A stretch of DNA of 64,000 bases from Spirochaetota bacterium (GTDB lineage Bacteria > Spirochaetota > UBA6919 > CBDBPB01), in the NCBI GenBank assembly GCA_965208615.1, contig CBDBPB010000008.1, positions 32,001 through 96,000 on the forward strand, written 5' to 3'. Made by a program: the position numbers and the translations under genes. Below the pieces are notes generated by a model. It was given only the letters and a program-made list of their open reading frames with translations, did not search any database and was not told where the DNA came from. Of this stretch, positions 1,700 to 57,587 are shown piece after piece; the first letter of the stretch is position 1; every line of letters starts with the position of its first letter.

Positions 1700-1852
1700 A
1701 TTTAATACTCTTTATAAGTCATTCCTAAGCTGTTATTTTATATACATATATTTAAACTTAAGATAATTTTACTTTTCTGTAAAGTACCTATTGTACAATT
1801 AAAAGTCCTAATATACAAGCACACACTCCAACATAGGCAAAAGTAAATATAA

Positions 1853-1880
1853 TAAAAAAAAGAGGAGCCATGCTCCCCTT
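1853..1880 (-). terminator. Intrinsic terminator of beta-helix gene 1
   Basis: Minus-strand RNA GGGGAGC-AUG-GCUCCUC followed by a U run, just after the stop at 1907. Confidence 0.75.
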
Positions 1881-1906
1881 AGTTTTAACGGATTAAATAA
1901 ATATAC

Positions 1907-3220
1907 TTACTGGCCTGACTCAAGGTTTGACTGTACAAGATTATATGTATTATCAACCTTTTTATTTTCATCATTACCCGTTCCATAAGTTGGAGTGCCT
2001 GTTATGTTTGAGTCAGGAACACCAGCTTTACCAACAACATTATAGATAGCACCACCTATTCCTTCTTTTTTACTTTGAATACTACCAGCAATGTTTTTCT
2101 TAAAAACCACAGTATTATCTAAAGAGGGATGGCTATCATGTTCATTAGCCATGGCTCCTCCCTTTTCTGAGGCCGTATTACCAATAAAAGTCACATTTGT
2201 TAACTTGGGACTACTGCCATGATTACGCATAGCCCCCCCTTGTATGCCCGCATTACTAGTAAAAGTTACATTATCTAAAGTGGGATTACTGCTACTCCTA
2301 TTATACATCCCAGATCCGTATGAGGCTTCATTGTTATCAAAAGTCACATTATCTAAAGTGGGATTGCTATTATAAGTATTAGCTATACCTCCTCCTCTTC
2401 CAAATTTGTCAGAAGTGTTTTCCCCTGTGGATATATTACCAGTAAAAGTCACATTTGTTAACTTGCAACTGCTTTTCCAGTTACGCATAGCCCCTCCGTA
2501 TATTCTAGCCGTATTATTAGTAAAAGTTACATTTGTTAGAGTGAGCTTGTCATTTTCCTTATTATACATGCCTCCTCCATATTGAGCCTCATTGTTATCA
2601 AAAGTCACATTATTTAAAGTGGGAGAGCTAATATGATTATACATTGCCCCTCCAGTATCATGAGGAGAAGTACCATTAGCATTACCTTTGGTAATAGTAA
2701 CAGCCTCTAACTTTGAAGTATTATCTAAGGGTTGACTACTAGGATGATAAAAAACGTGGTAGACATTATCACTATTATTGTTTTCTGTTCCAATATCACC
2801 ACTTATAATAGTCTTATAGCTATTAGGATCGTTAGACTCACCAATATTTTCACCGGGAAAGCCTCCAATAACCTCTATACCATTCCTTAATGAAAAATGC
2901 TTATAACGATCACCACTACCACCATTTGGATGACTAGTAGGCTTATATGTCCCTTGGGCTATATATACCTTAATAGGCTTAGGCTTGGCTGAGGCCGCAT
3001 TAATACCATCTTGTAAATTACCATAAGCTTTTTGCCAGTTTGTTCCGTCTCCACCAGTTACCCCTACTTTTACAAAAACTCCGCCTTGTTCAGCTATTTG
3101 AGCATAGCCGTAAGAAGAAGTAAAGGGATTTATTACATCACTAGCTCCACACTTGCCTCTAAACATCGAAAAACTAATTAATAATATTATCAAGATATTA
3201 AAATAGTTTTTTTTAGTCAT
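1907..3220 (-). CDS. Exported right-handed parallel beta-helix protein with Pmp-like GG(A/G)M..FxxN repeats (paralog 1, 7 repeats), possible lipoprotein
   Basis: Signal peptide followed by Cys; DUF1565-like VYIAQGTYKP N-domain; GGAM/GGGM-xN...VTFxxN repeats; C-terminal LVQSNLE shared with paralogs. Confidence 0.8.
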   Translation of the reverse strand: MTKKNYFNILIILLISFSMFRGKCGASDVINPFTSSYGYAQIAEQGGVFVKVGVTGGDGTNWQKAYGNLQDGINAASAKPKPIKVYIAQGTYKPTSHPNGGSGDRYKHFSLRNGIEVIGGFPGENIGESNDPNSYKTIISGDIGTENNNSDNVYHVFYHPSSQPLDNTSKLEAVTITKGNANGTSPHDTGGAMYNHISSPTLNNVTFDNNEAQYGGGMYNKENDKLTLTNVTFTNNTARIYGGAMRNWKSSCKLTNVTFTGNISTGENTSDKFGRGGGIANTYNSNPTLDNVTFDNNEASYGSGMYNRSSSNPTLDNVTFTSNAGIQGGAMRNHGSSPKLTNVTFIGNTASEKGGAMANEHDSHPSLDNTVVFKKNIAGSIQSKKEGIGGAIYNVVGKAGVPDSNITGTPTYGTGNDENKKVDNTYNLVQSNLESGQ

Positions 3221-7836: not shown

Positions 7837-8157
7837 TTAGACCTTTAGTTTTTTTCCTAACCGTTCTTCGATAGAGGCTATCTTGGATAGCAGTCGAGAG
7901 TTACTATTTTTACGATAGTCCACTTTGATCTGAATAGAAATCCTATCCGAGCTTTCCTGCATTTTACTAAAACACTGATTTACAACATCAAATACCTTAT
8001 CCCATGATCCCTCTATTACAGTACCCATCGGATTAAGACGATAATCCAGTCCACTTTTGTCTATTATATCCAATGACTTTGCCACATACTTACTTAGGCT
8101 TTTACCCTTATCCAAAGGAGACATGCTAAACTCTAATAATATATTATTATCGGACAT
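7837..8157 (-). CDS. MTH1187/YkoF (thiamine-binding, DUF77) family protein
   Basis: EFSMSP...SLSKYVA...SGLDYRLNPMGTVIEG...IKVDYR. Confidence 0.85.
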   Translation of the reverse strand: MSDNNILLEFSMSPLDKGKSLSKYVAKSLDIIDKSGLDYRLNPMGTVIEGSWDKVFDVVNQCFSKMQESSDRISIQIKVDYRKNSNSRLLSKIASIEERLGKKLKV

Positions 8158-8181
8158 AAGCTCTCCTTATAAGATTTATTT

Positions 8182-8466
8182 TTAATCAAACAGATCATCA
8201 AAAGTTTTTTTACTACTATTATTTTTCTTTTTTTGCTCACTAGCACTTTTAAACTTAAAATATTCGCATACATTGGCTTTTTCTTTATCCAAAAGCCTTT
8301 CTGCTGATGACTCCCTACACTCATTATAGCTATGCTCATCATAAAATCCGCAGTTTAGGCATACATGAAGATCATAATCGCAGTTATCACAAACATCACG
8401 AAAGCTTATTTTTCTGTCCTCTTGCTCCTTATTACAATTATGACATAAATACATAGCTCTACTCAA
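8182..8466 (-). CDS. Cys-rich conserved hypothetical (putative Zn/Fe-binding) protein
   Basis: CHNC...CDNC..DLHVCLNCGFYD...NECRE...ANVCEYF. Confidence 0.7.
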   Translation of the reverse strand: MSRAMYLCHNCNKEQEDRKISFRDVCDNCDYDLHVCLNCGFYDEHSYNECRESSAERLLDKEKANVCEYFKFKSASEQKKKNNSSKKTFDDLFD

Positions 8467-8704
8467 TATAAAAGTCTAGCCCTACACTCCCAGGTTCTTT
8501 TTCAAGCATGTTTTTTAGTATTTCGAATAAATTGACTTCTTCTTCAGAAACTGCATTCTCTTGTAATGTTTTTATCGTTTCTAAGTTAATAGAAAAGTCT
8601 TCATCTGTATCGTTTTCACTCAACAGGTGAGCTTTTAAAAAACTATACTGTTCCTTGTTAATTTCGCAAATAGATTCGTTATTACGTATGTTATATATTT
8701 TCAT
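8459..8704 (-). CDS. Small acidic hypothetical protein
   Basis: 81-aa ORF tightly coupled to dapA and overlapping the next gene. Confidence 0.6.
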   Translation of the reverse strand: MKIYNIRNNESICEINKEQYSFLKAHLLSENDTDEDFSINLETIKTLQENAVSEEEVNLFEILKNMLEKEPGSVGLDFYIE

Positions 8705-8706
8705 AA

Positions 8707-9576
8707 TTATAATAAACCAGACTTCTCCATAATACCTCTAAGACGGCTTTTATTATAAGATGTCATCTCACATAATGGGAGTCTCACTTGTGAACTACAT
8801 AAACCCATAAAACTAAGAGCCTGCTTAACTGGAACTGGATTAGTCTCTAAAAACATCCCCTTTATTAGATTTAAATAAGTGTATAAAAAGTTCTTTGCCT
8901 TAGCTAAATTACCATCAAGACAGTTTTGTACAAAAATAGAACTCTCTTTTGGAAGAACGTTTGATATTACAGAAATAACCCCATGACCACCTATACTACA
9001 AATAGGCAGGGTTAAAGCATCATCTCCGGATAAAATAAAGAAATCTTTAGCACTTTCTATAATTCTCATCGCCTGTTCTAAACTACCAGATGCCTCTTTA
9101 ATACCAACTATATTTTTATGTTCAGACAGCTTTATAACAGTATTCACGTCCATATTAACAGCTGTACGAGATTGGATGTTATATAGTATTATAGGAATAT
9201 TAACCTCATCAGCCACGTTAATAAAGTGTTTATAAAGGCCTTCTTGACTAGGCTTATTATAATAAGGTGTTACCATTAAAACTCCATCAGCTTTTACCTC
9301 TTTTGCGTGACGGGTTAAGTTTACTGCTTCTTTTGTACTGTTAGAGCCAGTACCAGCAATTACAGGCACCCTATTTTTAGTGATTTCTACTGTAAAGCGA
9401 ACCACCTCATTATGTTCATCATGAGAAAGAGTAGCAGATTCACCAGTAGTACCACAAACTACTATTCCGTTAACACCGTTATCAATTTGAAAGTTAATAA
9501 GCTTTTCAAAACTATTATAGTCAACCTTTTCATCCTTAAAAGGGGTAACTATTGCAACAAGATTAGATTTAAACAT
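8707..9576 (-). CDS. dapA: 4-hydroxy-tetrahydrodipicolinate synthase
   Basis: AIVTPF, GTTGES, PYYNKP, YNIQSRT, GIKEASG, SGDD, ETNPVPVK. Confidence 0.95.
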   Translation of the reverse strand: MFKSNLVAIVTPFKDEKVDYNSFEKLINFQIDNGVNGIVVCGTTGESATLSHDEHNEVVRFTVEITKNRVPVIAGTGSNSTKEAVNLTRHAKEVKADGVLMVTPYYNKPSQEGLYKHFINVADEVNIPIILYNIQSRTAVNMDVNTVIKLSEHKNIVGIKEASGSLEQAMRIIESAKDFFILSGDDALTLPICSIGGHGVISVISNVLPKESSIFVQNCLDGNLAKAKNFLYTYLNLIKGMFLETNPVPVKQALSFMGLCSSQVRLPLCEMTSYNKSRLRGIMEKSGLL

Positions 9577-9869
9577 AAGTCTCACTCAAAATAAATTATT
9601 TATTTAAATTAATATAGTCTTATAATAAAGTAGCAAACTAAAGTTACATTATTATAACTAATTAGTCAAGGAAAACTATACCCTTAGAAAAAAAACTGCT
9701 CCGTTAAAATAACTAAGCTATTTACTTATAGTCATTGATCGCCTTAGAATGCTTTTTCTATAAACATTATTAGTAATATTAGTTGACTTTATAGTAAAGG
9801 AATATTAGTATATAAACTAATTATAATTAATGTTTTGTATTCTAAAATAGACCATAAAAGAGTTTGACT

Positions 9870-10709
9870 ATGTTTTCTGTAAAGGTTAACGGAGAACTTA
9901 TTAGCAAAGAAACTGTTAACTATAAATTAAAAAAGTTTATAGACTTGTATAAAAAAAATAACTTCGATAAAAAGATAAATAAACAAAAAATAGAAAATCT
10001 TAAAATAGAACTACTCCAACAGCTAACTGATGAATTATTAATAGTCCAATACGGCAAAAGGAATAATCTTATACCTAGTAATCGTGAGATAGAACTAGAA
10101 CTCTCTAAAATAACTTATAACATAAACAATAAAAATGAGACGGCTAATGTTATTAACGATATTACTAATAAGCTAATTATTTATAAAGTAGTTGAAAACA
10201 GCCTGTCAGACTACATTGACTATGATAAAGCTTTAACTGCGTTATATGAGCAAAATAAACAACATTTTTCTATAGGTAGGGCGGTCAAAGTTAGGCATAT
10301 ATTAATAAAAATAGTATCTGAAGAAGATGCCCTTTTAAAAATAGAGTCGGCTCTTAAAAGAGTAAGGCAGGGGGAAGACTTTGCAGAGGTTGCTAAGGAT
10401 ATATCCGAATGTCAAAGCTCGTTAAGAGGCGGGGATATTGGATATATTACCGCTAATAAAGTTTGTCAAGAAGTGGAGAGTCGTGCATTTGATCTAAAGA
10501 AATATGAAATTAGTGATATTTTTAAAACAGAGTTCGGCTTTCATATAATCCAGGTTTTGGATAAGGTTGAAAATTATATTGCTCCTTTTGAATCAGTAAA
10601 AGAAAAGCTTGCCGAATTTCTTTATAGGGGTGCAAAAAAACAAGTATTAAATACAATTTTGGACTCTCTTAAAGAAAAAGCAGAAATTGAATATATTGAG
10701 TTAGGATAA
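9870..10709 (+). CDS. PpiC/parvulin-type peptidyl-prolyl isomerase with SurA_N-like region
   Basis: VRHILI, FAEVAKDISEC, GGDIG, TEFGFHII. No signal peptide seen. Confidence 0.85.
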   Translation: MFSVKVNGELISKETVNYKLKKFIDLYKKNNFDKKINKQKIENLKIELLQQLTDELLIVQYGKRNNLIPSNREIELELSKITYNINNKNETANVINDITNKLIIYKVVENSLSDYIDYDKALTALYEQNKQHFSIGRAVKVRHILIKIVSEEDALLKIESALKRVRQGEDFAEVAKDISECQSSLRGGDIGYITANKVCQEVESRAFDLKKYEISDIFKTEFGFHIIQVLDKVENYIAPFESVKEKLAEFLYRGAKKQVLNTILDSLKEKAEIEYIELG

Positions 10710-47754: not shown

Positions 47755-50094
47755 TTAACTTTCGATAATTATATCCTTTTCTCTTTTATAAAAGTTGGCT
47801 TGTTTTATATTGTTTACTTTTCGGTAGGCCCTAATAATGTTATTATAACATCTTGCCACTAACCTGTCTGTCATATTAAGCCTTTTATAGTTTATAATGG
47901 CCATCTTTAAATGTTTTATAGCACTATTAAATCTTTTTATATTATAATATATAACCCCAATGTTGTTATAGGTATTAGCCATACCTTCTATATCCTTTAT
48001 CCTTATTTTTATTTTGAGGGACTTCTTATAATATTCTAATGCTTTATTATAGTCCTTTTTAACGTTATAAACGGCTCCAATGTTATTAAGGCATGTAGCC
48101 ATGTTAAATTTATCACCATACTTTTTATATATTGTAATGGCCTTATTAAAATGGTATATTGCTTTATCATAATTAGATTTACTATATTGGCTATACCCAA
48201 TCTTAAGGTGATTTTGAGCTTCTTTTGAGTCTATATACTGCTTTAATTTTTTCTTGGCAATATTTAACTTTATAGTATTTTTATTTTGAACGTAAATATT
48301 TATTGCTTTTTTCTGATAGTAAATAGATTGACTAATATTTTGTTTATTATAGCTTTTTTTTGCAAGATTATTATAGTTATCCCCCAGAATAGACAAGTTA
48401 CTACCAGAAGCAGGAATATAATTTAATCCCTTTCTATAAAAGTTTATTTTTTCTTCTGAATTACTACTTTCTTTTCCTAATGCAAAGTAGCACTCAGCAA
48501 GCCTATTATCAATATTTTTGTATTTAACTCCTCCTCGTCTTACTACTCCAAGGAACATACTCACCGCAGACTCATATTTACCTTGATTTTGTAGTCTTAT
48601 AGCTTTAGCATACATAGCTTTTAGTAGTTGGTCCTCTTTGGCTAATAGCAGTTGTCTTTGGAGTAGGGTATTAAATAAAATATAGTTATTTCTTTCTTCT
48701 TTAAACTTTGACCCTATAATGGGTAGCATTTTTGGCCTGTGGATATATATACTGCCTTCCTGGAAAGCGGATATCTTACTATTTATGTAGGAGTTTATAG
48801 TTTCAAACCTGACCTCTGCTTGGCTTTCACTAAAAGAGAAGTCCGCAAAGAAGGATACAAACAGCATAGTAAACAATCCATTACCTTTATTATTGGCGTT
48901 TATCTGATCCAATAGTCTGTAGGACCTCCTAAAATATTTATTATATTTATTTGTATATACACCTTCTTTTTTGTCCTTTGATACAAGATTACTATAAAAC
49001 CTTAATACATTTTCTTTTAAGCCATCCTCTTCGGTTATTCGTATAAGATTTGTAGTAGTTTGATTTATATAAGAACTATCCATAATTAAAACAGTATCGT
49101 TAGCAAAGGAGTTTACAAGACCATAAAAGGCTTTGGGCTTAATGGACTTCATATCAGTAAATATTGGCATTCCATTATTATTAGAGTGTCCTGAATATAT
49201 TATCATAATAAGTTCGTCTATATTAATGGTTTTGATAAACTTATTAAACTCTGACTTAAAGCTATTTAGGGTTATATTCTTTGTTGTATAAATTCTCTCT
49301 AGCGGTGTATCCAAAATTATATTAAACAGATTTTTGTATACTATTAGATCATTCTCAGTATACCTTAATTTATACTTATCATCATCGTAATCCTGATTGA
49401 CTATAATAAAGGCACGTATCTTAGGTTTTCTGTAGTTTTTGTATGATGATAGGTAATCTCTTTTATTGATACGTAATTCTGGTGATCTATAAATATAAGG
49501 GGCAAGTTTTTTATCTTCCTTGTTGTTTAGGTAGTCAAAGTAGGGCGAAGATATTGTCTTTTGTCTTTGTGTTCTACTTTTTGCTATAAAGCCATAAGGA
49601 CTTTTAGACTTAATTTCTTTTTCTTTTACTGGAGTATATAAAATATATCTATTTTTTGTAAGACTATTAGTTTTTTTATATGTAGGACTATCTAATAAAT
49701 ATGGACTTTGTTTTTTTTTTCTTTTGAAACTAATTAATCCATATCTATTTTTTGTTAGTTTTTTTATTTTATCTTCTTTATCAGAGGTTCGCAAAAGGTA
49801 GGATGAAGACGTTATTTTATTTAGTTTACTTTCTTTTTTAGAGTTAATTAATCCGTATCTATTTTTAGTTATGAATTTAAGTTTTTCTTCTTTAGGATGG
49901 CTTACTAATAAATATGCGCCTTTTGCTTTGGCCGATTTTAAAGGTTTATCCTTAAGTCCATAGGGATGGGATGATTTACTCTTATCTATATGAAAAGGCT
50001 TAGTCGTCTTACTAGAACTACATAACGTTAAAACCATCAATAGGATTATGTTATATATTATAAAAAAGCTTTTACAATTAAGCCCTATATTCAT
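47755..50094 (-). CDS. Putative lipoprotein with basic repeat N-region, catalytically dead caspase-like (C14) domain and TPRs
   Basis: LTLC lipobox-like; IIYSGHS and MDSSY (Cys replaced by Ser); C-terminal TPRs (NNIGAVY..AL.YY). Confidence 0.75.
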   Translation of the reverse strand: MNIGLNCKSFFIIYNIILLMVLTLCSSSKTTKPFHIDKSKSSHPYGLKDKPLKSAKAKGAYLLVSHPKEEKLKFITKNRYGLINSKKESKLNKITSSSYLLRTSDKEDKIKKLTKNRYGLISFKRKKKQSPYLLDSPTYKKTNSLTKNRYILYTPVKEKEIKSKSPYGFIAKSRTQRQKTISSPYFDYLNNKEDKKLAPYIYRSPELRINKRDYLSSYKNYRKPKIRAFIIVNQDYDDDKYKLRYTENDLIVYKNLFNIILDTPLERIYTTKNITLNSFKSEFNKFIKTINIDELIMIIYSGHSNNNGMPIFTDMKSIKPKAFYGLVNSFANDTVLIMDSSYINQTTTNLIRITEEDGLKENVLRFYSNLVSKDKKEGVYTNKYNKYFRRSYRLLDQINANNKGNGLFTMLFVSFFADFSFSESQAEVRFETINSYINSKISAFQEGSIYIHRPKMLPIIGSKFKEERNNYILFNTLLQRQLLLAKEDQLLKAMYAKAIRLQNQGKYESAVSMFLGVVRRGGVKYKNIDNRLAECYFALGKESSNSEEKINFYRKGLNYIPASGSNLSILGDNYNNLAKKSYNKQNISQSIYYQKKAINIYVQNKNTIKLNIAKKKLKQYIDSKEAQNHLKIGYSQYSKSNYDKAIYHFNKAITIYKKYGDKFNMATCLNNIGAVYNVKKDYNKALEYYKKSLKIKIRIKDIEGMANTYNNIGVIYYNIKRFNSAIKHLKMAIINYKRLNMTDRLVARCYNNIIRAYRKVNNIKQANFYKREKDIIIES

Positions 50095-50111
50095 AACCTT
50101 AACTATGTATT

Positions 50112-50657
50112 CTAGAACCTATAACCAATTGATGGAGTTACATCCAAAAAAAATCCCATTCCACCTGCATGTACTTTTACACTTAATCCAAGATATAGGT
50201 TATTATATATATAGAATTCTGTACCAAGTGCAAAGGCTCCACCATGTTTTTCAGTATTTTCGTTATCGTATCCACTTAGATATAAAAACTCATATCCTAC
50301 TTCTATGAATATAACAAACCAATCCGGAAAGTTAGAGTTACCAAAAATAAATCTAATACCTAAAAAGATAACGTGTACCATATTGTCATTGCTAATAGAG
50401 GGAATATTAAAATTATGAAAAGTATAATTAAGTCTAAACTGAGTCATAACCTCAGTACTAATTCTAGCTATATCTATTCCTATACCAAGCCCAAAACCTG
50501 TTGAGTGACCAATAACATCAGCAGGCTTATTAAAAGGCCTTGGAGCAAAAGTAAATTGAGCCTCTATATTTAATAAAGGAAATAATGACTTTGAAGTTAA
50601 TAGCAAAAAAACCACTAAGATTAACCTTAGTAAAGGCTTTTTTATCATAATATACAC
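50112..50657 (-). CDS. Small outer-membrane beta-barrel protein
   Basis: Signal peptide, alternating aromatic/Gly strands, C-terminal IGYRF. Confidence 0.7.
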   Translation of the reverse strand: MYIMIKKPLLRLILVVFLLLTSKSLFPLLNIEAQFTFAPRPFNKPADVIGHSTGFGLGIGIDIARISTEVMTQFRLNYTFHNFNIPSISNDNMVHVIFLGIRFIFGNSNFPDWFVIFIEVGYEFLYLSGYDNENTEKHGGAFALGTEFYIYNNLYLGLSVKVHAGGMGFFLDVTPSIGYRF

Positions 50658-50676
50658 CTTTTATCTTATTTTTAAG

Positions 50677-51267
50677 TTATAAATCATCTTCATCATCTTC
50701 AGTTAGTTGTTGTTGATATACCCATAGTTCTATCCAGTCTATATAGGTATAGTCCTCTCTTGATAAATGTTTAATTGAGGGATTTATACCAAGAGGCATT
50801 CCATCACTCAAAATGGGATCTATACTCAAAAGAGATCTTATAATATGCCATTTACTCTCCCTAATCCTTACTGCACCAAGAAGTTTAGAAGGTGTATAAA
50901 AACCTATAAGAGCTCTAAAAGGATTATCAGTTTTAACTTTAGCTATGATTAGATAGCTTGTTTTTGGTATTCGCCTTACTCTAGTGTTATAATAAACACT
51001 ACCCCCATTAGTACTATATCCAAACTCGAATATGCCGTTTTTTACTTTTACCACTCCACCCTTTCCTGTTTGAGTGATGAGTTCATGGTTCCACTCTTGA
51101 GTATTGTTATAAAAGTCCCATCTTTTAGCTAACACCCATCCACTGGATATCATAACCTCATAATGATGGTTTTTATTTGCATAACTCATTGCTAAATCGT
51201 TACCACAAGAGCTTGTTATAATTAATACTAATGTCAATAGGCTAAGCCTTAAAATAAAAGCTATCAT
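50677..51267 (-). CDS. Lipoprotein of unknown function (beta-rich)
   Basis: ITSSC lipobox, YIDWIEL strand, acidic tail. Confidence 0.65.
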   Translation of the reverse strand: MIAFILRLSLLTLVLIITSSCGNDLAMSYANKNHHYEVMISSGWVLAKRWDFYNNTQEWNHELITQTGKGGVVKVKNGIFEFGYSTNGGSVYYNTRVRRIPKTSYLIIAKVKTDNPFRALIGFYTPSKLLGAVRIRESKWHIIRSLLSIDPILSDGMPLGINPSIKHLSREDYTYIDWIELWVYQQQLTEDDEDDL

Positions 51268-51391
51268 TTTATATACCTAATTTAGCTATATCTCTCATAT
51301 AGACTAGGTTATAGTCAATTTTAGTATAAAAACACCTAACTTACTATTTTAGATATAATTTATGTTCTAATTTAGCTTAAGGTTAATAATA

Positions 51392-54346
51392 TTATTGAGT
51401 TTCTATTATTTTGAGGGTTTTTTCATATTTGTCTATGTTGCGGTGGTTTATACTCTTAGCTATTTTAATGAGCTTCTTTTGAAAGCTGATAGCCTTGCTA
51501 TAATCCTTTAAATGATAATAGCTAAGAGCAATAATATTATATACTTCGATAAGGATAGGCTTTTGGTTTTTTATTTTTGCTAAAATGGCCAAAGAACTCT
51601 TAGAATATTTTATAGCTCTATTATACTTATTTTGGTTATAAGCTTGTTCTCCCAGTTTGTTATATGAATATGCCATATAACTTTTGGCTTTTATTTCCAA
51701 CTTTATATTTTTTATAAAGTTAAAGTACTTTAGTGATTTAGTAAAATACTTTAACGACTTATTATAAAGGCTTTTATTATAATTTATTATAGCAATATTA
51801 AAATATACGTTTGCCATAGTGTTATACGCACTCTTATTCCTTAACAGTTCTATGGTCCAAAAATAATGCTTTAAAGCTTTATTGGGCTTATTCAGTTTTT
51901 CATAAATAGAGGCAATATTAACTAGGGTATTTGCAACCATAGTATTATGGAATAAGCCTTTTTTGATCTCCAAAGATATTCTAAGGTACTTTATAGCAGA
52001 ATTATAATCATTATTTTTAGAATACATAACTCCCATATCGTTAGTAATTTTTGCTTTTAGATATAGGGCATTTTTTAGTCCACTTTTGTCATTGGTATTT
52101 AATCCTTTAGATATGGCTTTATTAATGTTTTCTAATGCTATAGTATATTTTTGTTGTTTATAATAGTTATACCCAATATTGGTATATGTTCGTCCAAGAG
52201 CAATATCGTGTTTTACTAACTCATAGATAGTTTTGACTTTTTTTAGGTATATTATAGACTTTTTATATTCCCTTTTTTTAAAGTAATATTTACCTAAATT
52301 ATCATATACCCCCATTAACTCAACTATTATTCTAGCATTACCCTCTTTATATTTAGTTTTAGTACTAATTTTTTTAGCTTTTATTAATAGTTCTTCGCTT
52401 TTATTATAGTTATTACGTTCATTTTCAACCATAGCCATTTCTATAAGAATATCCACTTTAGCCCTCAAGTTATTATGTTTAAATCTTATGGCATAGGTTT
52501 TTTTTAAATAATTATAGGCCTTATTATACTCTTTTTTTTTGTAGTATACCATTGCTATACTGTTATAATTATTCGCAAGGAAATATTCATCTTTTTCTTT
52601 TCTATATATGTATGCAGAACTCTTATAATATTTAATTGCGTTATCATATTCGTTTAGAGCCTCATGTACTCTTGCTATATTATTTTGACACATAGCAATT
52701 TCCTTAGTCTTATTCAATGATTTAACAATTCTAAGGGCCTTTTTAAAGTATCCCAAAGTTTTTTTATACTGCCTTCTAATAAAATAGGCCATGGCAATAT
52801 TATTGGATGCACTTGATATTCCAAATGAATCATTAATTTGTTCACTTATTTTTAATGCTTTATTAAAGTATCCAATGGCTTTTTTAGGCTGATGTCTTTG
52901 TATATAAAATCCACCAATATTGTTATTAGCGGTAGAAATGCCATATAAGTCTTTATTTTGTTTACTAATATTCAGGGCTTTTTTAAAAAGCGATAATGCC
53001 TTATTAAACCTACCCTGATAACTGTATACTGTACCAATATTGTTATTTGATCTTGCTATCCAATAGTTATTTTCGGCGTTAGTAGACAGCCATAAAACAT
53101 TAGTAAAGTATTGCAATGCCAATCTATATTTTTTATTATAGAGATATATTTGTCCTATAGTATTATTAGCTTCAAGATGGTTAGAATTATATTCTAGAGC
53201 TTTGTTTAGGTTTGCTATTGCCTTATTAGGATATCTTACACCATAAGCTTGTCCAATTTTAGTATATATACCTGCCAGACGTACACGTACATCTTTATAG
53301 TTGTAGTTTATTTTTAATATTTGTTTGTATAAGCTAATGGCAGTATAATATTTACTTTTAATCTGTTGTAAAACGGCTTTATAATATAGTCTTTCAATTT
53401 TAGGTAGTTTTTTTCTTTCTATATTTTTGTAAAACAAATAAAAGTTTTCTTTGACCTTAAAAGGAGATTGAAATGGTATCATTTTAGGTCTCTGACTATC
53501 AAATCCGCTTTCTTGTAAATCAGATATCTTTAGATTAACGTGGGAGTTCAAATCTTCAAATGAATAGGCATTTTTATTTGGATCAAGCTCAGAAAAGAAT
53601 GCGGCCAATATAATACTAAACATCCCATTACCCACACCATTATATCCTAATCCCTCTAAAAACTTATATGTGCTACCCAAGTGGCTTTGCATACCTTTTA
53701 TTTGTTTATAATTAGCCTCTCTCGACTGCTGATGAGCAAGACTGCTATAAACCCTAATAATATTTGATCTATACCTTAATCTTTCCTTAACCTCTTTATT
53801 GTTATTAGACAGTCCCACTTGTTTATAGGCATTATCTGAGTTATCAGAGATTAGTATATTATTCCCTCCTTCTTCTGCTCCTGAATAGCAGGAATCCATT
53901 ATTATTACTGTATCATTTTTAAAAGAGTTAAAGAAATCATAAAATAGTTTTGGTTTTATAGTTTTTCTATCAGCAAAAATAGGCATACCATTGTTATTAC
54001 CATGACCTGCATAAATAAAAACAATAAGCTCATCCTTTTTGACCCTGGATTTAAACTCGTTTATAATGGATATAAAGTCATATAGCTCTACATTTTTATA
54101 TGAGCTAATCCTATTAAGAGGAACCTTATATAACCTTCTAAAAATAGTCTTATAAACCTCTATATCATTAATGGTATATTTTAAGTCTAAATCCTGACCT
54201 TTATAATCCTGATTGGCTATCATTAAAACATGGAATTTTGGTGTTTTATAGTCCTCTAGCTGGGATAGTTCAATAGAAAATAGGACATTAATAAAATTAA
54301 AGCAAAATATACATATAACAATACCCTTTATAAGGCTCTTATTCAC
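51392..54346 (-). CDS. Exported caspase-like (peptidase C14) protease with a long TPR array
   Basis: Signal peptide; FIYAGHG and IMDSCYSG His-Cys dyad; GMFS and QRP caspase C-terminal elements; more than ten TPRs. Confidence 0.82.
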   Translation of the reverse strand: MNKSLIKGIVICIFCFNFINVLFSIELSQLEDYKTPKFHVLMIANQDYKGQDLDLKYTINDIEVYKTIFRRLYKVPLNRISSYKNVELYDFISIINEFKSRVKKDELIVFIYAGHGNNNGMPIFADRKTIKPKLFYDFFNSFKNDTVIIMDSCYSGAEEGGNNILISDNSDNAYKQVGLSNNNKEVKERLRYRSNIIRVYSSLAHQQSREANYKQIKGMQSHLGSTYKFLEGLGYNGVGNGMFSIILAAFFSELDPNKNAYSFEDLNSHVNLKISDLQESGFDSQRPKMIPFQSPFKVKENFYLFYKNIERKKLPKIERLYYKAVLQQIKSKYYTAISLYKQILKINYNYKDVRVRLAGIYTKIGQAYGVRYPNKAIANLNKALEYNSNHLEANNTIGQIYLYNKKYRLALQYFTNVLWLSTNAENNYWIARSNNNIGTVYSYQGRFNKALSLFKKALNISKQNKDLYGISTANNNIGGFYIQRHQPKKAIGYFNKALKISEQINDSFGISSASNNIAMAYFIRRQYKKTLGYFKKALRIVKSLNKTKEIAMCQNNIARVHEALNEYDNAIKYYKSSAYIYRKEKDEYFLANNYNSIAMVYYKKKEYNKAYNYLKKTYAIRFKHNNLRAKVDILIEMAMVENERNNYNKSEELLIKAKKISTKTKYKEGNARIIVELMGVYDNLGKYYFKKREYKKSIIYLKKVKTIYELVKHDIALGRTYTNIGYNYYKQQKYTIALENINKAISKGLNTNDKSGLKNALYLKAKITNDMGVMYSKNNDYNSAIKYLRISLEIKKGLFHNTMVANTLVNIASIYEKLNKPNKALKHYFWTIELLRNKSAYNTMANVYFNIAIINYNKSLYNKSLKYFTKSLKYFNFIKNIKLEIKAKSYMAYSYNKLGEQAYNQNKYNRAIKYSKSSLAILAKIKNQKPILIEVYNIIALSYYHLKDYSKAISFQKKLIKIAKSINHRNIDKYEKTLKIIETQ

Positions 54347-54373
54347 AACTACGACCTTAATTAATATAGTATT

Positions 54374-55324
54374 TTAATCAGTCTTACTAATAATCTCTAA
54401 ATATTTTTTTCTTTTGTTTATTTTGACTTGACTTGGTGGTCTATCTTCTTTCATTAGCATATTATATTTGTTATTAGTTTTTTTAACCTTTTTTATTTTT
54501 TTAGCCTTATATATCTTAGACTTAGGTTTTTTGTATATTTTCTTTTGTAGTTCAGTATACTGTTCATCTTTAGAAGGCTTATCCTTGTATTGTTCATCTT
54601 TAGACGGCTTATCCTTGTATAGTTCATCTTTGTATAATTTGTTTTGTTCTTTAAATAGGCTAATCAATTTGGGATAGTTATTTTCTTTTGCTATATCTAT
54701 GGGGGTTTTACCATCATTATTTTTTATGTATATTGAGTTAGTGCTTAGCCTTTTTATCAGGAATAGGGATATATCATCATTTCCTTTGTAAGCACTAATG
54801 TGAAGTGGAGTATTATTAAATTTATACTTAATATTTAGATTTACTCCTATATTAATAAGATCCATTATTTTTTCTTTATTGTTGTTAATAATGGAGTCAT
54901 ATAGTTCTAGGCTAAGATTTTTAGTTAATATTGTTTGTATATTAAGACTTTCGTCTTTTTCGAAAAGGGTTAATTTATAGGGTATATCTTTATATAATTT
55001 TAGATTAAAGGTTATATATTTCTTTTTATTTTTATCTATCTCTTTTATTGAAAGGGTTTTTTTATTTATTTGCCAGTAAAATCTTTTAATAATGTTATTA
55101 TCTTTGATTATAAAGCCTTTTTTATCCTGAAAGAAGTGATATTCTTTATTTATATCCGAATTTAACTTGTTATCTTTATTATATATAAAATCTACTTTCC
55201 AGCTTCCGATTATGGATCTAAACAGCTTATTTTTGTAATTGTAATTTGATCCCAAAGAAAATATTAATAATAGTATTATACAGATTTTGATATACATATT
55301 GCTATAAACACCTGTATACTCCAA
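54374..55324 (-). CDS. Exported protein with lipocalin-like domain and ankyrin repeats
   Basis: Signal peptide, IIGSWKV, TPLHISAYKG, GKTPIDIA. Confidence 0.72.
   Translation of the reverse strand: MEYTGVYSNMYIKICIILLLIFSLGSNYNYKNKLFRSIIGSWKVDFIYNKDNKLNSDINKEYHFFQDKKGFIIKDNNIIKRFYWQINKKTLSIKEIDKNKKKYITFNLKLYKDIPYKLTLFEKDESLNIQTILTKNLSLELYDSIINNNKEKIMDLINIGVNLNIKYKFNNTPLHISAYKGNDDISLFLIKRLSTNSIYIKNNDGKTPIDIAKENNYPKLISLFKEQNKLYKDELYKDKPSKDEQYKDKPSKDEQYTELQKKIYKKPKSKIYKAKKIKKVKKTNNKYNMLMKEDRPPSQVKINKRKKYLEIISKTD
54561..54635. repeat. 30-bp tandem repeat (YKDKPSKDEQ), about 2.5 copies
   Basis: TGTTCATCTTTAGA(A/C)GGCTTATCCTTGTAT repeated. Confidence 0.85.
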
Positions 55325-55482
55325 CTTATTAATATTATATTAATTTAGGTCAAATTATTTTAGAGATAAGTTGAGATAATGTTAACAAGCCTTATCCATA
55401 GTCTAAAAGCTGGACGTAACTATAACAAGTAAACCAAGATACCTTCATCTATAAGTATTTCAATGTTATTAAAAGCAATCAT

Positions 55483-55508
55483 AAAAAAAGAGGAGCTATA
55501 CTCCCCTT
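55483..55508 (-). terminator. Intrinsic terminator of beta-helix gene 3
   Basis: GGGGAGU-AUA-GCUCCUC plus U tract; homologous to the terminator at 1853-1880. Confidence 0.75.
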
Positions 55509-55541: not shown

Positions 55542-55607
55542 CTGACTCAAAATATGGTTGTACCTGACTCAATGTCTGACTGTACCTGACTCAAGGTTTG
55601 ACTGTAC
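55542..55607. repeat. 22-bp tandem triplication spanning the 3' end of beta-helix gene 3
   Basis: CTGACTCAA at 55542, 55564 and 55586; TGTAC at 55559, 55581 and 55603. Confidence 0.85.
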
Positions 55608-57587
55608 AAGTTTATATGTATTATCAACCCTTTTATTTTCATCATCACCCTCTCCATAGGTTGGAGTACCTGTTATGCTTGAATTATTATTATAAATAGC
55701 CCCACCTTTGCCTACTTTTTCTTTTCCACTTTCAATACTACCAGCAATGTTTTTATTAAAAATCACCGTATTATCTAAAGTGGGCTTGCTATTATCACTA
55801 TTATACATGCCCCCTCCGTATTGCTTAGCCTCATTGCTATTAAAAGTCACATCTTTTAAAGTGGGAAAGGTTTTATAATTATACATGCCCCCTCCTTTAG
55901 TAGCCGTATTACTAGTAAAAGTCACATCTTTTAAAGTGGGAAAGGTTTTATAATTAGTCATGCCCCCTCCGTGTATAGCCGTATTACTATTAAACTCCAC
56001 ATTTGTTAAAGTGGGAGAGCTATTACCATTAGCCATGCCCCCTCCGCCGTCATTTGCCGTATTACTAGTAAACTCCACATTTGTTAAAGTGGGAGAGCTA
56101 TCATAAGCATTAAACATGCCTCCTCCGGCCTCGGCCGTATTACTAGTAAACTTCACATTTGTTAAAGTGGGAGAGCTATTATTATTAAACATGCCCCCTC
56201 CGTACCTATTAGCCGTATTACTAGTAAAAGTCACATTTGTTAACTTGGGAGAGCTATTATTATTATACATGCCCCCTCCTAAGTCGGCCGTATTACTAGT
56301 AAACTCCACATCTTTTAAAGTGGGAGAGCTCTTCTCATTACCCATGCCCCCTCCGAGTTTGGCCTTATTACTAGTAAACTCCACATTTGTTAAAGTGGGA
56401 GAGCTATTATTATTAAGCATGCCCCCTCCGGCCTCGGCCGTATTAGTAGTAAAAGTCACAGTTGTTAACGTTGGAGAGCTATTATTATTATACATGCCCC
56501 CCCCTCCTAACAATGTGGCCGTATTACTAGTAAACTCCACATTTGTTAAAGTGGGAGAGCTTTTATCCCAATTAGCCATGCCCCCCCCTCCGTACTTTTT
56601 TGCTGTATTACTATTAAAAGTCACAGTTGTTAAAGTGGGAGAGCTATTATTATTAAGCATGCCCCCTCCGGCCTCGGCCGTATTACTAGTAAACTTCACA
56701 TTTGTTAAAGTGGGAGAGCTATTATTCTCATTATACATGCCCCCTCCGATCCAGTTAGCCGTATTACTAGTAAACTCCACAGTTGTTAACGTTGGAGAGC
56801 TATTATTATTATACATGCCCCCTCCGAGCAAGCTAGCCGTATTAGTAGTAAAAGTCACATCTTTTAAAGTGGGAGAGCTCTTCTCATTATACATGCCCCC
56901 TCCTAAGTCGGCCGTATTACTAGTAAAAGTCACAGTTGTTAACGTTGGAGAGCTATTATTATTATACATGCCCCCTCCGATCCAGTTAGCCGTATTAGTA
57001 GTAAAAGTCACATCTGTTAAAGTGGGAGAGCTATTATTATTAAACATTCCCCCTCCCCTATCATGGGGAGAACGACCATTAGCATTACCTTTGGTAATAG
57101 TAACCGCCGCTAGCTTTGCTGAGTTATTTAACTTTGCTTTGTCTTCTTTATCACCCGGATGATAAAAAACATGATAGACATTATCATTATCACTATCCTC
57201 TGTTCCAACATCACCGCTTAGAATAGTCTTATATTGTTCAGGATCGTTAGACTCATAAATATTTACACCAGGATAACTGCCAATAACCTCTACACCATTC
57301 TTTAAGGCAAAATGCTTATTACGATCACCACTACCACCATTTGGATGACTAGTAGGTTTATAAGTTCCTTTTGATACATATACCTTAACAGGTTTTTTAC
57401 TAGACTTAAACTTTTCTGAGGCTTTATTAATAGCCTTTTGTAGATCACTAAAGGCAGTATTCCAGGATTTCCCATTTTTAGTAGTACGCTTTTCACCTTT
57501 TTTTAAAGCTTTTACAAAGAATCCATTTACTTGTTTGCATTCTATTAATAAAACTAAAATTGCTAAAATAAATAATACTTTTTTCAT
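55569..57587 (-). CDS. Pmp-like parallel beta-helix lipoprotein (paralog 3, 17 mosaic repeats)
   Basis: LLIEC lipobox-like, VYVSKGTYKP, 17 GGGM...F(T/N)xN repeats, LVQSNLE. Confidence 0.82.
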   Translation of the reverse strand: MKKVLFILAILVLLIECKQVNGFFVKALKKGEKRTTKNGKSWNTAFSDLQKAINKASEKFKSSKKPVKVYVSKGTYKPTSHPNGGSGDRNKHFALKNGVEVIGSYPGVNIYESNDPEQYKTILSGDVGTEDSDNDNVYHVFYHPGDKEDKAKLNNSAKLAAVTITKGNANGRSPHDRGGGMFNNNSSPTLTDVTFTTNTANWIGGGMYNNNSSPTLTTVTFTSNTADLGGGMYNEKSSPTLKDVTFTTNTASLLGGGMYNNNSSPTLTTVEFTSNTANWIGGGMYNENNSSPTLTNVKFTSNTAEAGGGMLNNNSSPTLTTVTFNSNTAKKYGGGGMANWDKSSPTLTNVEFTSNTATLLGGGGMYNNNSSPTLTTVTFTTNTAEAGGGMLNNNSSPTLTNVEFTSNKAKLGGGMGNEKSSPTLKDVEFTSNTADLGGGMYNNNSSPKLTNVTFTSNTANRYGGGMFNNNSSPTLTNVKFTSNTAEAGGGMFNAYDSSPTLTNVEFTSNTANDGGGGMANGNSSPTLTNVEFNSNTAIHGGGMTNYKTFPTLKDVTFTSNTATKGGGMYNYKTFPTLKDVTFNSNEAKQYGGGMYNSDNSKPTLDNTVIFNKNIAGSIESGKEKVGKGGAIYNNNSSITGTPTYGEGDDENKRVDNTYKLVQSNLESGTVRH

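Follow-up and report, generated by a model that had tools for sequence, protein, structure and literature searches.

An exported caspase-type protease and its long-retained dead paralog are encoded with a predicted outer-membrane module in one order of spirochaetes

The DNA analyzed here (the window) is a stretch of 64,000 nucleotides (nt) from contig CBDBPB010000008.1 (positions 32,001 to 96,000) of the Spirochaetota genome GCA_965208615.1 (here G000; 2.46 Mb, 99.4% complete). On its minus strand, positions 47755 to 55324 hold five tightly spaced open reading frames, A to E, with intergenic gaps of 27, 124, 19, and 17 nt (Table 1). Gene B encodes a Peptidase_C14 (caspase/metacaspase-type) domain followed by tetratricopeptide repeats (TPR), and gene E encodes a paralog of B that lacks the catalytic cysteine and begins like a lipoprotein. 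Comparison of the caspase domains indicates that this dead copy is old and has been retained. Genes C and D, which lie between the two, encode a lipoprotein with the fold of a carbohydrate-binding module (CBM) and a small exported protein that is probably an outer-membrane beta-barrel; gene A encodes an exported ankyrin protein. We propose that the block encodes an outer-membrane-tethered, periplasm-facing protease/pseudoprotease module, a reading to which we give a probability of about 0.45.

B matched the PF00656 Peptidase_C14 profile with an E value of 1.3e-10 (41.8 bits; cutoff, 21.4) over profile positions 3 to 221 of 233, and its C-terminal part matched many TPR families (TPR_12, 4.2e-66). 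Both residues of the dyad are in place, His115 within YAGHG and Cys153 within DSCYSG, and judged by its sequence B is an exported, catalytically competent C14 protease. A profile of the B domain family, searched against the PDB, retrieved Metacaspase-4 (6w8s; E value, 5e-4) and, more weakly, metacaspase-9, MALT1, Yca1, and MCA2. Metacaspases were reached as solved relatives with this family profile only; in phmmer searches of the PDB, full-length B retrieved TPR proteins only and its caspase domain alone retrieved nothing relevant. No S41 match was listed for B in the family scans, and CHAT was not among the Pfam families listed at E values of ≤0.1 for B, E, or the other products. Two acidic features of B, an ND motif after strand 1 and an Asp two residues before the catalytic Cys, do not vary across alignment A7, and their counterparts in Metacaspase-4 are the vND and DSC columns. 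According to the available text of PMC6426788, the acidic S1 residues Asp95 and Asp211 of TbMC2 hold the basic P1 residue of the substrate and are kept in published pseudo-orthocaspases too. Because B keeps these acidic S1 positions of the metacaspase/orthocaspase type, it probably cuts after Arg or Lys.

BLASTP aligned B with E at an E value of 1e-70 (31% identity over 592 residues that take in the caspase domain and the first TPRs), which confirms the paralogy of the two caspase domains claimed in an earlier note on this DNA, made from the sequence alone. That note had placed a caspase domain at the N terminus of both proteins. For B, the PF00656 match given above bears this out; E itself, at 19.3 bits, falls slightly under the cutoff of 21.4, and two of its orthologs score 41.3 and 37.9 bits. 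The TPR part of E matched TPR_12 at 3.4e-22. As the earlier note had observed, only B keeps the His-Gly/Cys signature: where B has YAGHG and DSCYSG, E has YSGHS and DSSYIN, the His being kept and the following Gly and the Cys being lost.

The loss of the nucleophile is not peculiar to the window. Four E-type sequences were compared, namely, those of the window, of genomes G002 and G001, and of protein P0003 (P0004 is the G002 protein with a later start). The Cys position is occupied by Ser, Ala, Ser, and Ala, respectively, so that Cys is absent from all four, and no E homolog that retains it was seen. The His is also lost, to Asn, in one of the four, and the Gly after it is Ser in three; the dyad positions of E-type proteins thus read H/S, H/A, or N/S. 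By comparison, His and Cys are both kept in all nine B-type or solo caspase-TPR relatives, and the active/inactive pairing of the earlier note holds across the family in this sense. The acidic pocket (the ND motif plus an Asp at the position two residues ahead of the missing Cys) is present in four of four E-type proteins, and on this evidence E can probably still bind substrates with a basic P1 residue. An insertion of ~20 residues after the Cys is carried by the B-type proteins and absent from the E-type proteins.

In a maximum-likelihood tree of 19 caspase domains, for which six caspase proteins that differ in their C-terminal part supplied the root, an E clade (four rows; support, 100/98) was separate from a B clade (five rows; 99/98). 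The lineages of the window, G001, and G002 are present in the one clade and in the other alike. Since both clades hold all three genomes, the duplication and the loss of Cys predate the split between the two families of the order, and the dead copy has stayed intact from then on.

The arrangement of the genes is conserved as well. B was searched in 41 genomes and had matches in 27, mostly to the TPR part only; among the matches listed, the caspase part was matched in 4 of the 41 (G000, G001, G002, and G034). G001 and G002 are the sole other genomes of the order among the 41, and both keep B-C-D-E in order and orientation, so the co-occurrence elsewhere on which the earlier note had made its proposal depend is found in both. 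Across the three loci, which represent two families, the intergenic gaps measure 10 to 124 nt, and the flanks differ: a methyl-accepting chemotaxis protein, bactofilin, and carbonic anhydrase in G002; NAD synthase and a PAS histidine kinase in G001; and an aldo-keto reductase and a polymorphic-membrane-protein (PMP)-repeat protein in the window. A further assembly contributed an E-type protein (P0003) and a B-type protein (P0018), both of which report a longest contig of 57,015 bases, which hints at a fourth linked pair; with P0019, the B-type proteins number five. In an index of 5.8 billion proteins, five with a B domain were found, and a peptide-pattern search of genome contigs for relatives of B and P0019 confirmed none. 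As far as seen, the family is confined to one order of uncultured spirochaetes. In G001 and G002, E is followed by a gene for an exported DUF4384 protein (L018:4027-4818 and L017:4322-5047, both on the minus strand; 31.4 and 39.2 bits in G001 and G002).

A separate group of exported C14 proteins of 505 to 571 amino acids (aa) was observed as well, with four members in G001, one in G002, and one in G034 (L031:2522-4066, L032:2721-4436, and L033:2819-4384, minus strand; L034:2882-4498, L035:3134-4651, and L010:1330-2853, plus strand). The C14 domain is intact (Pfam scores of 39.9 to 55.5 bits in five of six) and is followed by ~175 strand-like residues ending in YYF or YFF (five proteins) or WRL (one). 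These proteins may be caspases fused directly to a putative outer-membrane barrel, which gave a weak DUF2715 match (0.017) and had no detectable relation to D. None of the C14 matches in the genome of the window belongs to this group.

Export signals were judged by hand, as a hydrophobic core of 12 residues after Lys or Arg, using the mean Kyte-Doolittle value. Such a core is present at the N terminus of all five products (means of 2.5 to 3.15), and with it the description of five co-oriented, mostly tightly spaced genes with export signals, given in the earlier note, is confirmed. A Cys directly follows the core in three of three C orthologs and four of four E orthologs, as in lipoproteins. 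The lipobox-like motif reads TSSC in C and SSGC and ITSC in its orthologs; in E the residue is Cys25, with an equivalent Cys in all four orthologs, and this conserved Cys makes the suggestion of a membrane-tethered pseudoprotease plausible. There are four Peptidase_C14 matches in the genome of the window: B, E, and a tandem pair on contig C3. The C3 pair also has signal-like starts, and since B and E do too, all C14 genes of this genome (four of four) look exported. The members of the C3 pair (L022:6570-7976 and 8027-9718, plus strand; 468 and 563 aa) carry C-terminal fn3 repeats and have GHG and D(S/A)C intact in both copies, so that neither is dead, unlike the situation in B and E.

Between its Cys and the pseudo-caspase domain, E has about 180 residues (~40 to 215) that contain seven to nine copies of a motif of the x-(P/R)-Y-G-L type. 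The copies are mostly spaced 13 to 20 residues apart, with one wider gap (24 or 38) in two of four orthologs. The repeats occur in all four orthologs, Lys and Arg make up 19 to 26% of the region, and the Y-G-L columns are invariant (alignment A5). Among the open reading frames of G000, E is the only one with at least four matches to [PRKH]YG[LF]. Pfam gave no match for the region and Atlas gave no usable match. The repeats may serve as motifs bound by TPRs or form a protease-sensitive tether.

The caspase domains of the two proteins (B residues 27 to 312 and E residues 212 to 482), each with its family alignment, were modeled as a complex alongside three controls. The B-E complex had a median score of 0.78, and the best of the controls scored 0.00. 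A mark at the 0.78 level was reached by 116 of 157 solved complexes and by 2 of 215 mismatched pairs, a calibration that is only roughly valid for a model built with its own alignments. Contact agreement among the runs was at least 78%, and the predicted local distance difference test score (pLDDT) of the partner was at least 83. In the model, B residues 250 to 302 meet E residues 415 to 470, with a pseudosymmetric contact formed by the last helix and the last strand of both; we take this to be the canonical caspase dimer edge. The result indicates that the domains of B and E can be modeled as a caspase-type dimer and does not imply a preference for the heterodimer. Of the pairing put forward in the earlier note, a B-E dimer is supported as a model, one that does not tell a heterodimer from homodimers of either paralog.

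C had no match in Pfam or NCBIfam. Its AlphaFold2 model is a beta-sandwich with a mean pLDDT of 86.1, for which Foldseek retrieved CBM6, CBM4, CBM22, and CBM16 structures from the PDB (best E value, 2.1e-7). VIA-align against 48,161 representative chains also placed CBMs on top (8xmz; Z score of 13.2 and root mean square deviation of 2.3 Å over 124 residues), with many others at Z scores of 11 to 12. The CBM-type label refers to this shared fold, which by itself does not show function; in the module proposed below, C would bind a glycan or another envelope ligand. Relatives of C are rare. Among 401 sampled genomes of the phylum, 4 had the gene (G000, G001, G002, and, as a weak match, G139); a word-index search returned C itself only, and a full HMMER scan of 1.84 billion proteins gave 13 representatives at E values of ≤0.001, of which ten were read. 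Three of them (P0012, P0013, and P0016) are repeat proteins whose similarity covers only a portion of the C profile. In P0012 (629 aa), five repeats resemble the first conserved strand of the C family (KGW.L and DFY), each followed by TPR-like sequence; its partial match to the C profile has an E value of 2.3e-8, and the protein is probably unrelated to C in fold.

Several rare relatives join a C-like domain to barrel-like sequence within one protein: P0007 (573 aa), P0009 (423 aa), P0010 (a 296-aa fragment), and L030 (384 aa). L030 came from a metagenome pattern search with alignment A3, which returned three loci, the other two repeating known arrangements. The fused proteins end in RF or NF. 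In the model of L030, the sole fused protein modeled (mean pLDDT, 74.9), a sandwich at residues 50 to 189 and a low-confidence linker precede eight long strands at residues 217 to 383. Foldseek related the first half to CBMs and the second half to the OmpA transmembrane domain, OmpX, Ail, and NspA, with target-normalized template modeling scores of 0.61 to 0.73. Because rare relatives fuse a C-like sandwich to an OmpA/OmpX-like barrel, C and D look like the split form of one protein, and the view in the earlier note that the lipoprotein and the barrel belong together as partners gains support.

The barrel assignment of D, also made in the earlier note, draws mainly on its orthologs. D gave no Pfam barrel match of its own, only weak matches to DUF6048 (7.3e-4) and to the AcfA outer-membrane barrel family (0.017), and its profile found nothing in the PDB. 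Of its orthologs, that of G002 matched OMP_b-brl (PF13505) above the cutoff of 28.7 bits (30.6 bits; 4.5e-7) and that of G001 below it (26.2 bits; 1.1e-5). The C terminus reads G(Y/V)RF in three of three D orthologs. From these sequence features, D is probably an eight-stranded outer-membrane beta-barrel. In solved structures, eight-stranded barrels of the OmpA/OmpX kind keep their two termini on the periplasmic side. Since the fused relatives have such a barrel after the sandwich, the sandwich and, by analogy, C probably lie on that side too. G002 holds, on a short contig with no caspase gene, another C-like gene with a barrel-like gene after it (L027: 78-506 and 584-1219, minus strand; 1797-2582, plus strand); this C-like protein has a signal peptide and no lipobox, and a divergent ankyrin-repeat lipoprotein gene lies on its other side.

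In the module that we propose, B would be the enzyme, with predicted cleavage after Arg or Lys. E, which keeps the substrate pocket, a TPR array, and a lipid-anchor signal without the nucleophile, would pair with B via the caspase-type dimer edge and would serve as a membrane-anchored, noncutting partner that positions or restrains (gates) B or feeds substrates to it. The TPR arrays would choose protein partners. The C-D pair would be an outer-membrane-anchored binding module, either a docking site or the target area of the protease pair, and A and, in relatives, the DUF4384 protein may act as accessory binders. The compartment, the orientation, the P1 specificity, the heterodimer, and the roles of the TPRs, the repeats, and glycan binding are all points that we infer, as are the sensing of ligands by TPRs and the switch that the earlier note had proposed.

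A number of observations weigh against this proposal, and the evidence for a module is wholly computational. The complex model does not separate a B-E heterodimer from B-B or E-E homodimers; because caspase dimers have been solved and B and E are paralogs, the high score may reflect likeness to known dimers, and the interface segment is conserved also in solo paralogs that have no E-type neighbor. The hydrophobic N terminus of B might be an uncleaved anchor. D has no significant barrel match in its own sequence, and no homology between it and the barrels in the fused proteins was detected (best hmmsearch E value, 0.015; hhalign probability, 7%). The fused gene of L030 has no caspase gene on its 4.6-kb contig, and C-D may therefore be an independent module. 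The periplasmic orientation is drawn from the known topology of eight-stranded barrels, and spirochaete lipoproteins can be surface exposed. Nor is the block uniform. In G001 the B ortholog is split into pieces of 356 and 570 aa (L018:10406-11476 and 8529-10241, minus strand) that meet at NN with a change of frame after it, which could be an assembly uncertainty or a real break; G001 also has no ankyrin gene beside B; and in the window no DUF4384 gene lies beside E, the G000 copies being elsewhere (C4:55276-55464 and C1:194044-194244).

These points bear most directly on whether there is a complex at all. The genes might share only their regulation or compartment, with B as a free periplasmic protease, E as a TPR scaffold lipoprotein whose dead domain has another role (e.g., binding basic peptides), and C-D as an unrelated outer-membrane module. 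The three loci in G001 where solo caspase-TPR paralogs occur without C, D, or E neighbors fit such an arrangement, as do the caspase-free contig of L030 and a complex model that leaves room for homodimers. We nevertheless consider it unlikely, since the B-C-D-E order is kept in three genomes of two families despite changed flanks, the E and B clades are of equal age and always found together in the loci seen, and the genes are separated by no more than 10 to 124 nt. The location of the system could also differ from our proposal: if C and E were flipped outward and B were released or bound at the surface, the block would be a surface or secreted protease system that acts on external proteins or glycans for nutrients, adhesion, or contact with host or prey, with the ankyrin protein as an effector-like binder. 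CBM-type folds are typical of extracellular glycan binders, exported ankyrin proteins are often tied to interaction with eukaryotes, and the gene upstream of A encodes a PMP-repeat protein (POMP_repeat, 5.6e-16). Against these stand the fused relatives, which place the CBM-like domain N-terminal to a barrel of the OmpA/OmpX kind, and solved barrels of that family have periplasmic termini; moreover, the block contains no secretion-system gene and no barrel of autotransporter size, and L028, which carries the same block, bears the title of a marine-sediment metagenome contig and not of host-derived DNA. A surface system is in our judgment improbable, and for the role in host interaction that the earlier note had raised, no evidence emerged.

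In animals, caspase-8 and cFLIP form a heterodimer of an active enzyme and an inactive paralog. A bolder version of the proposed module would have this principle evolved independently in the bacterial envelope: the lipid-anchored dead E would form an obligate heterodimer with B and gate it in the periplasm, the basic "PYGL" repeats would be TPR-bound docking motifs or a cleavable tether whose cutting after Lys or Arg releases or activates the complex, and the CBM-like/barrel module would make this switch respond to the condition of the cell wall or outer membrane. We hold this specific mechanism to be rather doubtful. Far less probable still is a cell death or antiphage function like that of orthocaspase or TPR-CHAT systems, with a protease that kills or arrests the cell on a signal. 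It is suggested by the published record, since, as far as the available text of the sources goes, bacterial C14 proteins are mostly discussed for cell death and TPR-caspase-fold proteases act in type III-E CRISPR (10.1101/2022.08.17.504292). Opposed to it are the export signals on all five products, the absence of CHAT from the families listed at the threshold given above, and the absence of nuclease, nucleoside triphosphatase, or CRISPR genes in or beside the block in three genomes. PADLOC returned no defense-specific match, only generic TPR models and the candidate-system model PDC-M72A over the ankyrin part of A. On the grounds of these generic matches and the export signals, we rejected the reading as a defense system; the envelope defense considered in the earlier note likewise found no evidence, and its comparison with cytoplasmic TPR-caspase defense modules proved a loose one, those modules using CHAT and B being a Peptidase_C14 protein.

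The individual proteins are of kinds already in print (exported C14-TPR proteins and pseudo-orthocaspases). In a 2012 survey, the four Pfam domain types found fused to prokaryotic metacaspases most frequently included TPR_1 and TPR_2, and the N-terminal helices of such proteins were regarded as likely signal peptides (PMC3501461, available text); a secreted C14 protein with putative peptidoglycan-binding YARHG domains was described in the same year (PMC3355149, available text), and DUF4384 is among the domains joined to orthocaspases (PMC7475262). B resembles orthocaspases and bacterial metacaspases in its Peptidase_C14 domain, His-Cys dyad, acidic S1 positions, and C-terminal TPR. It differs from those studied (e.g., MaOC1), which in the literature seen in part are cytoplasmic and discussed for cell death or toxin-antitoxin control, in that all four C14 genes here bear signal sequences and B shares a conserved operon with its dead paralog and outer-membrane components. 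The pseudo-orthocaspases described in 2019 (classes YS, YN, YA, FS, and QC; Klemencic et al., PMC6426788) are, like E, dead C14 proteins with both acidic pocket residues, and the FS class carries TPR; in the available text they are mainly cyanobacterial, are discussed in relation to photosynthesis, and substitute both dyad residues, whereas E-type proteins have H/S, H/A, or N/S. E is further set apart as a lipoprotein with basic N-terminal repeats that is encoded three genes downstream of an active paralog; the terms "operon" and "heterodimer" are not present in PMC6426788.

The likeness of B and E to caspase-8/cFLIP consists of an active enzyme with a nucleophile-less paralog and of a modeled contact at the last helix and strand. 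Unlike that pair, B and E have no death-fold domain, are exported, probably prefer a basic P1 residue, and arose from an independent duplication within one spirochaete order, and their pairing is a modeled one. In Escherichia coli, the outer-membrane TPR lipoprotein NlpI and the periplasmic protease Prc form a pair. In Pseudomonas aeruginosa, the outer-membrane TPR lipoprotein LbcA binds the periplasmic protease CtpA and controls which envelope substrates are degraded (PMC8764530, PMC6050968, and PMC11021448, as given in the available text). The two systems are the nearest functional analogy only: E is likewise a TPR protein with a lipobox-like Cys, but their proteases are S41 serine enzymes and not C14 proteins, their adaptor is not a dead paralog, and they have no barrel or CBM-like partner. 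No published description of an exported active/inactive C14 operon was found in a search that left subscription journals outside, and the paired operon around a CBM-like/barrel module was likewise not found in print.

The remaining gene of the block, A, matched Ank_2 (4.4e-8) and Ank_5 (2.5e-7), and its hydrophobic core has a Kyte-Doolittle mean of 3.11; its true start is probably an internal ATG at 55297. Of the "ankyrin plus lipocalin-like" composition given in the earlier note, the ankyrin part is sound, and the lipocalin-like part is a lead only, the N-terminal domain reaching lipocalin-like clusters with an Atlas feature score of 0.78, below the 0.9 level. The G002 ortholog abuts B and matched Ank_2 at 1.3e-24.

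Table 1. The five-gene block: window coordinates of its genes, domains, and nearby candidate sites, and the composition of the block in two other genomes
Feature	Position	Strand	Extent	Description
Gene A	54374..55324	-	316 aa	Exported; small N-terminal beta-type domain, ankyrin repeats, repetitive Lys-rich tail
Gene B	51392..54346	-	984 aa	Exported Peptidase_C14 (caspase/metacaspase-type), intact dyad, then ~650 aa of TPR
B caspase domain	53486..54232	-	residues 39-287	Pfam envelope
Gene C	50677..51267	-	196 aa	Lipoprotein; CBM-type jelly-roll beta-sandwich
Gene D	50112..50657	-	181 aa	Small and exported; probable 8-strand outer-membrane beta-barrel; C terminus GYRF
Gene E	47755..50094	-	779 aa	Lipoprotein-like pseudo-caspase-TPR, paralog of B
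E N-terminal basic repeat region	49450..49977	-	residues about 40-215	
E pseudo-caspase domain	48655..49416	-	residues about 227-480	
Promoter-like site upstream of A	55357..55385	-		TTAACA-17-TAAAAT, 10 of 12; weak
Terminator-like hairpin and T-run	55488..55508	-		Between PMP-repeat gene and A; weak
G002 block				A(281)-B(993)-C(197)-D(176)-E(799), then DUF4384 protein
G001 block				B-C(194)-D(179)-E(819)-DUF4384

The cluster region has a G+C content of 0.275 to 0.293, compared with 0.34 to 0.37 in its surroundings. Promoter-like sites in the region numbered 61, against 51.9 expected from shuffles, and terminator-like sites numbered 3, against 3.3; because the counts equal the shuffle level, the scan is uninformative on operon structure. 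The 124-nt gap between B and C was considered as a regulatory RNA and rejected, as it is not conserved between the window and G002 and folds no better than shuffles (z, -0.27). In G002, the gap between B and C (L017:8715-8838, minus strand) contains a perfect 35-nt G+C-rich hairpin that has no counterpart in the equally long gap of the window. The gene upstream of the block (55569-57587, minus strand) encodes the exported PMP-repeat protein mentioned above, of 672 aa with ~20 polymorphic-membrane-protein-type repeats; a 348-aa open reading frame on the opposite strand (56116-57162, plus) is probably a by-product of the repeats.

The organisms that carry the block are uncultured, and the family is so far limited to one spirochaete order. 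Within those limits, the search uncovered a rare family, with 13 representatives and no earlier annotation found, in which an OmpA/OmpX-like barrel and a CBM-type domain share one protein or are encoded side by side. Bacterial caspase homologs have been studied almost solely as cytoplasmic enzymes of cell death or defense. The locus offers a testable case in another compartment, with an exported active enzyme, an equally old dead paralog in the same operon, a caspase-type dimer of the two in a model, and defined outer-membrane partners. If the pairing of B with E is true, it would provide a mechanism for pseudo-orthocaspases, and control of caspase-fold proteases through inactive paralogs would no longer count as an invention of animals.

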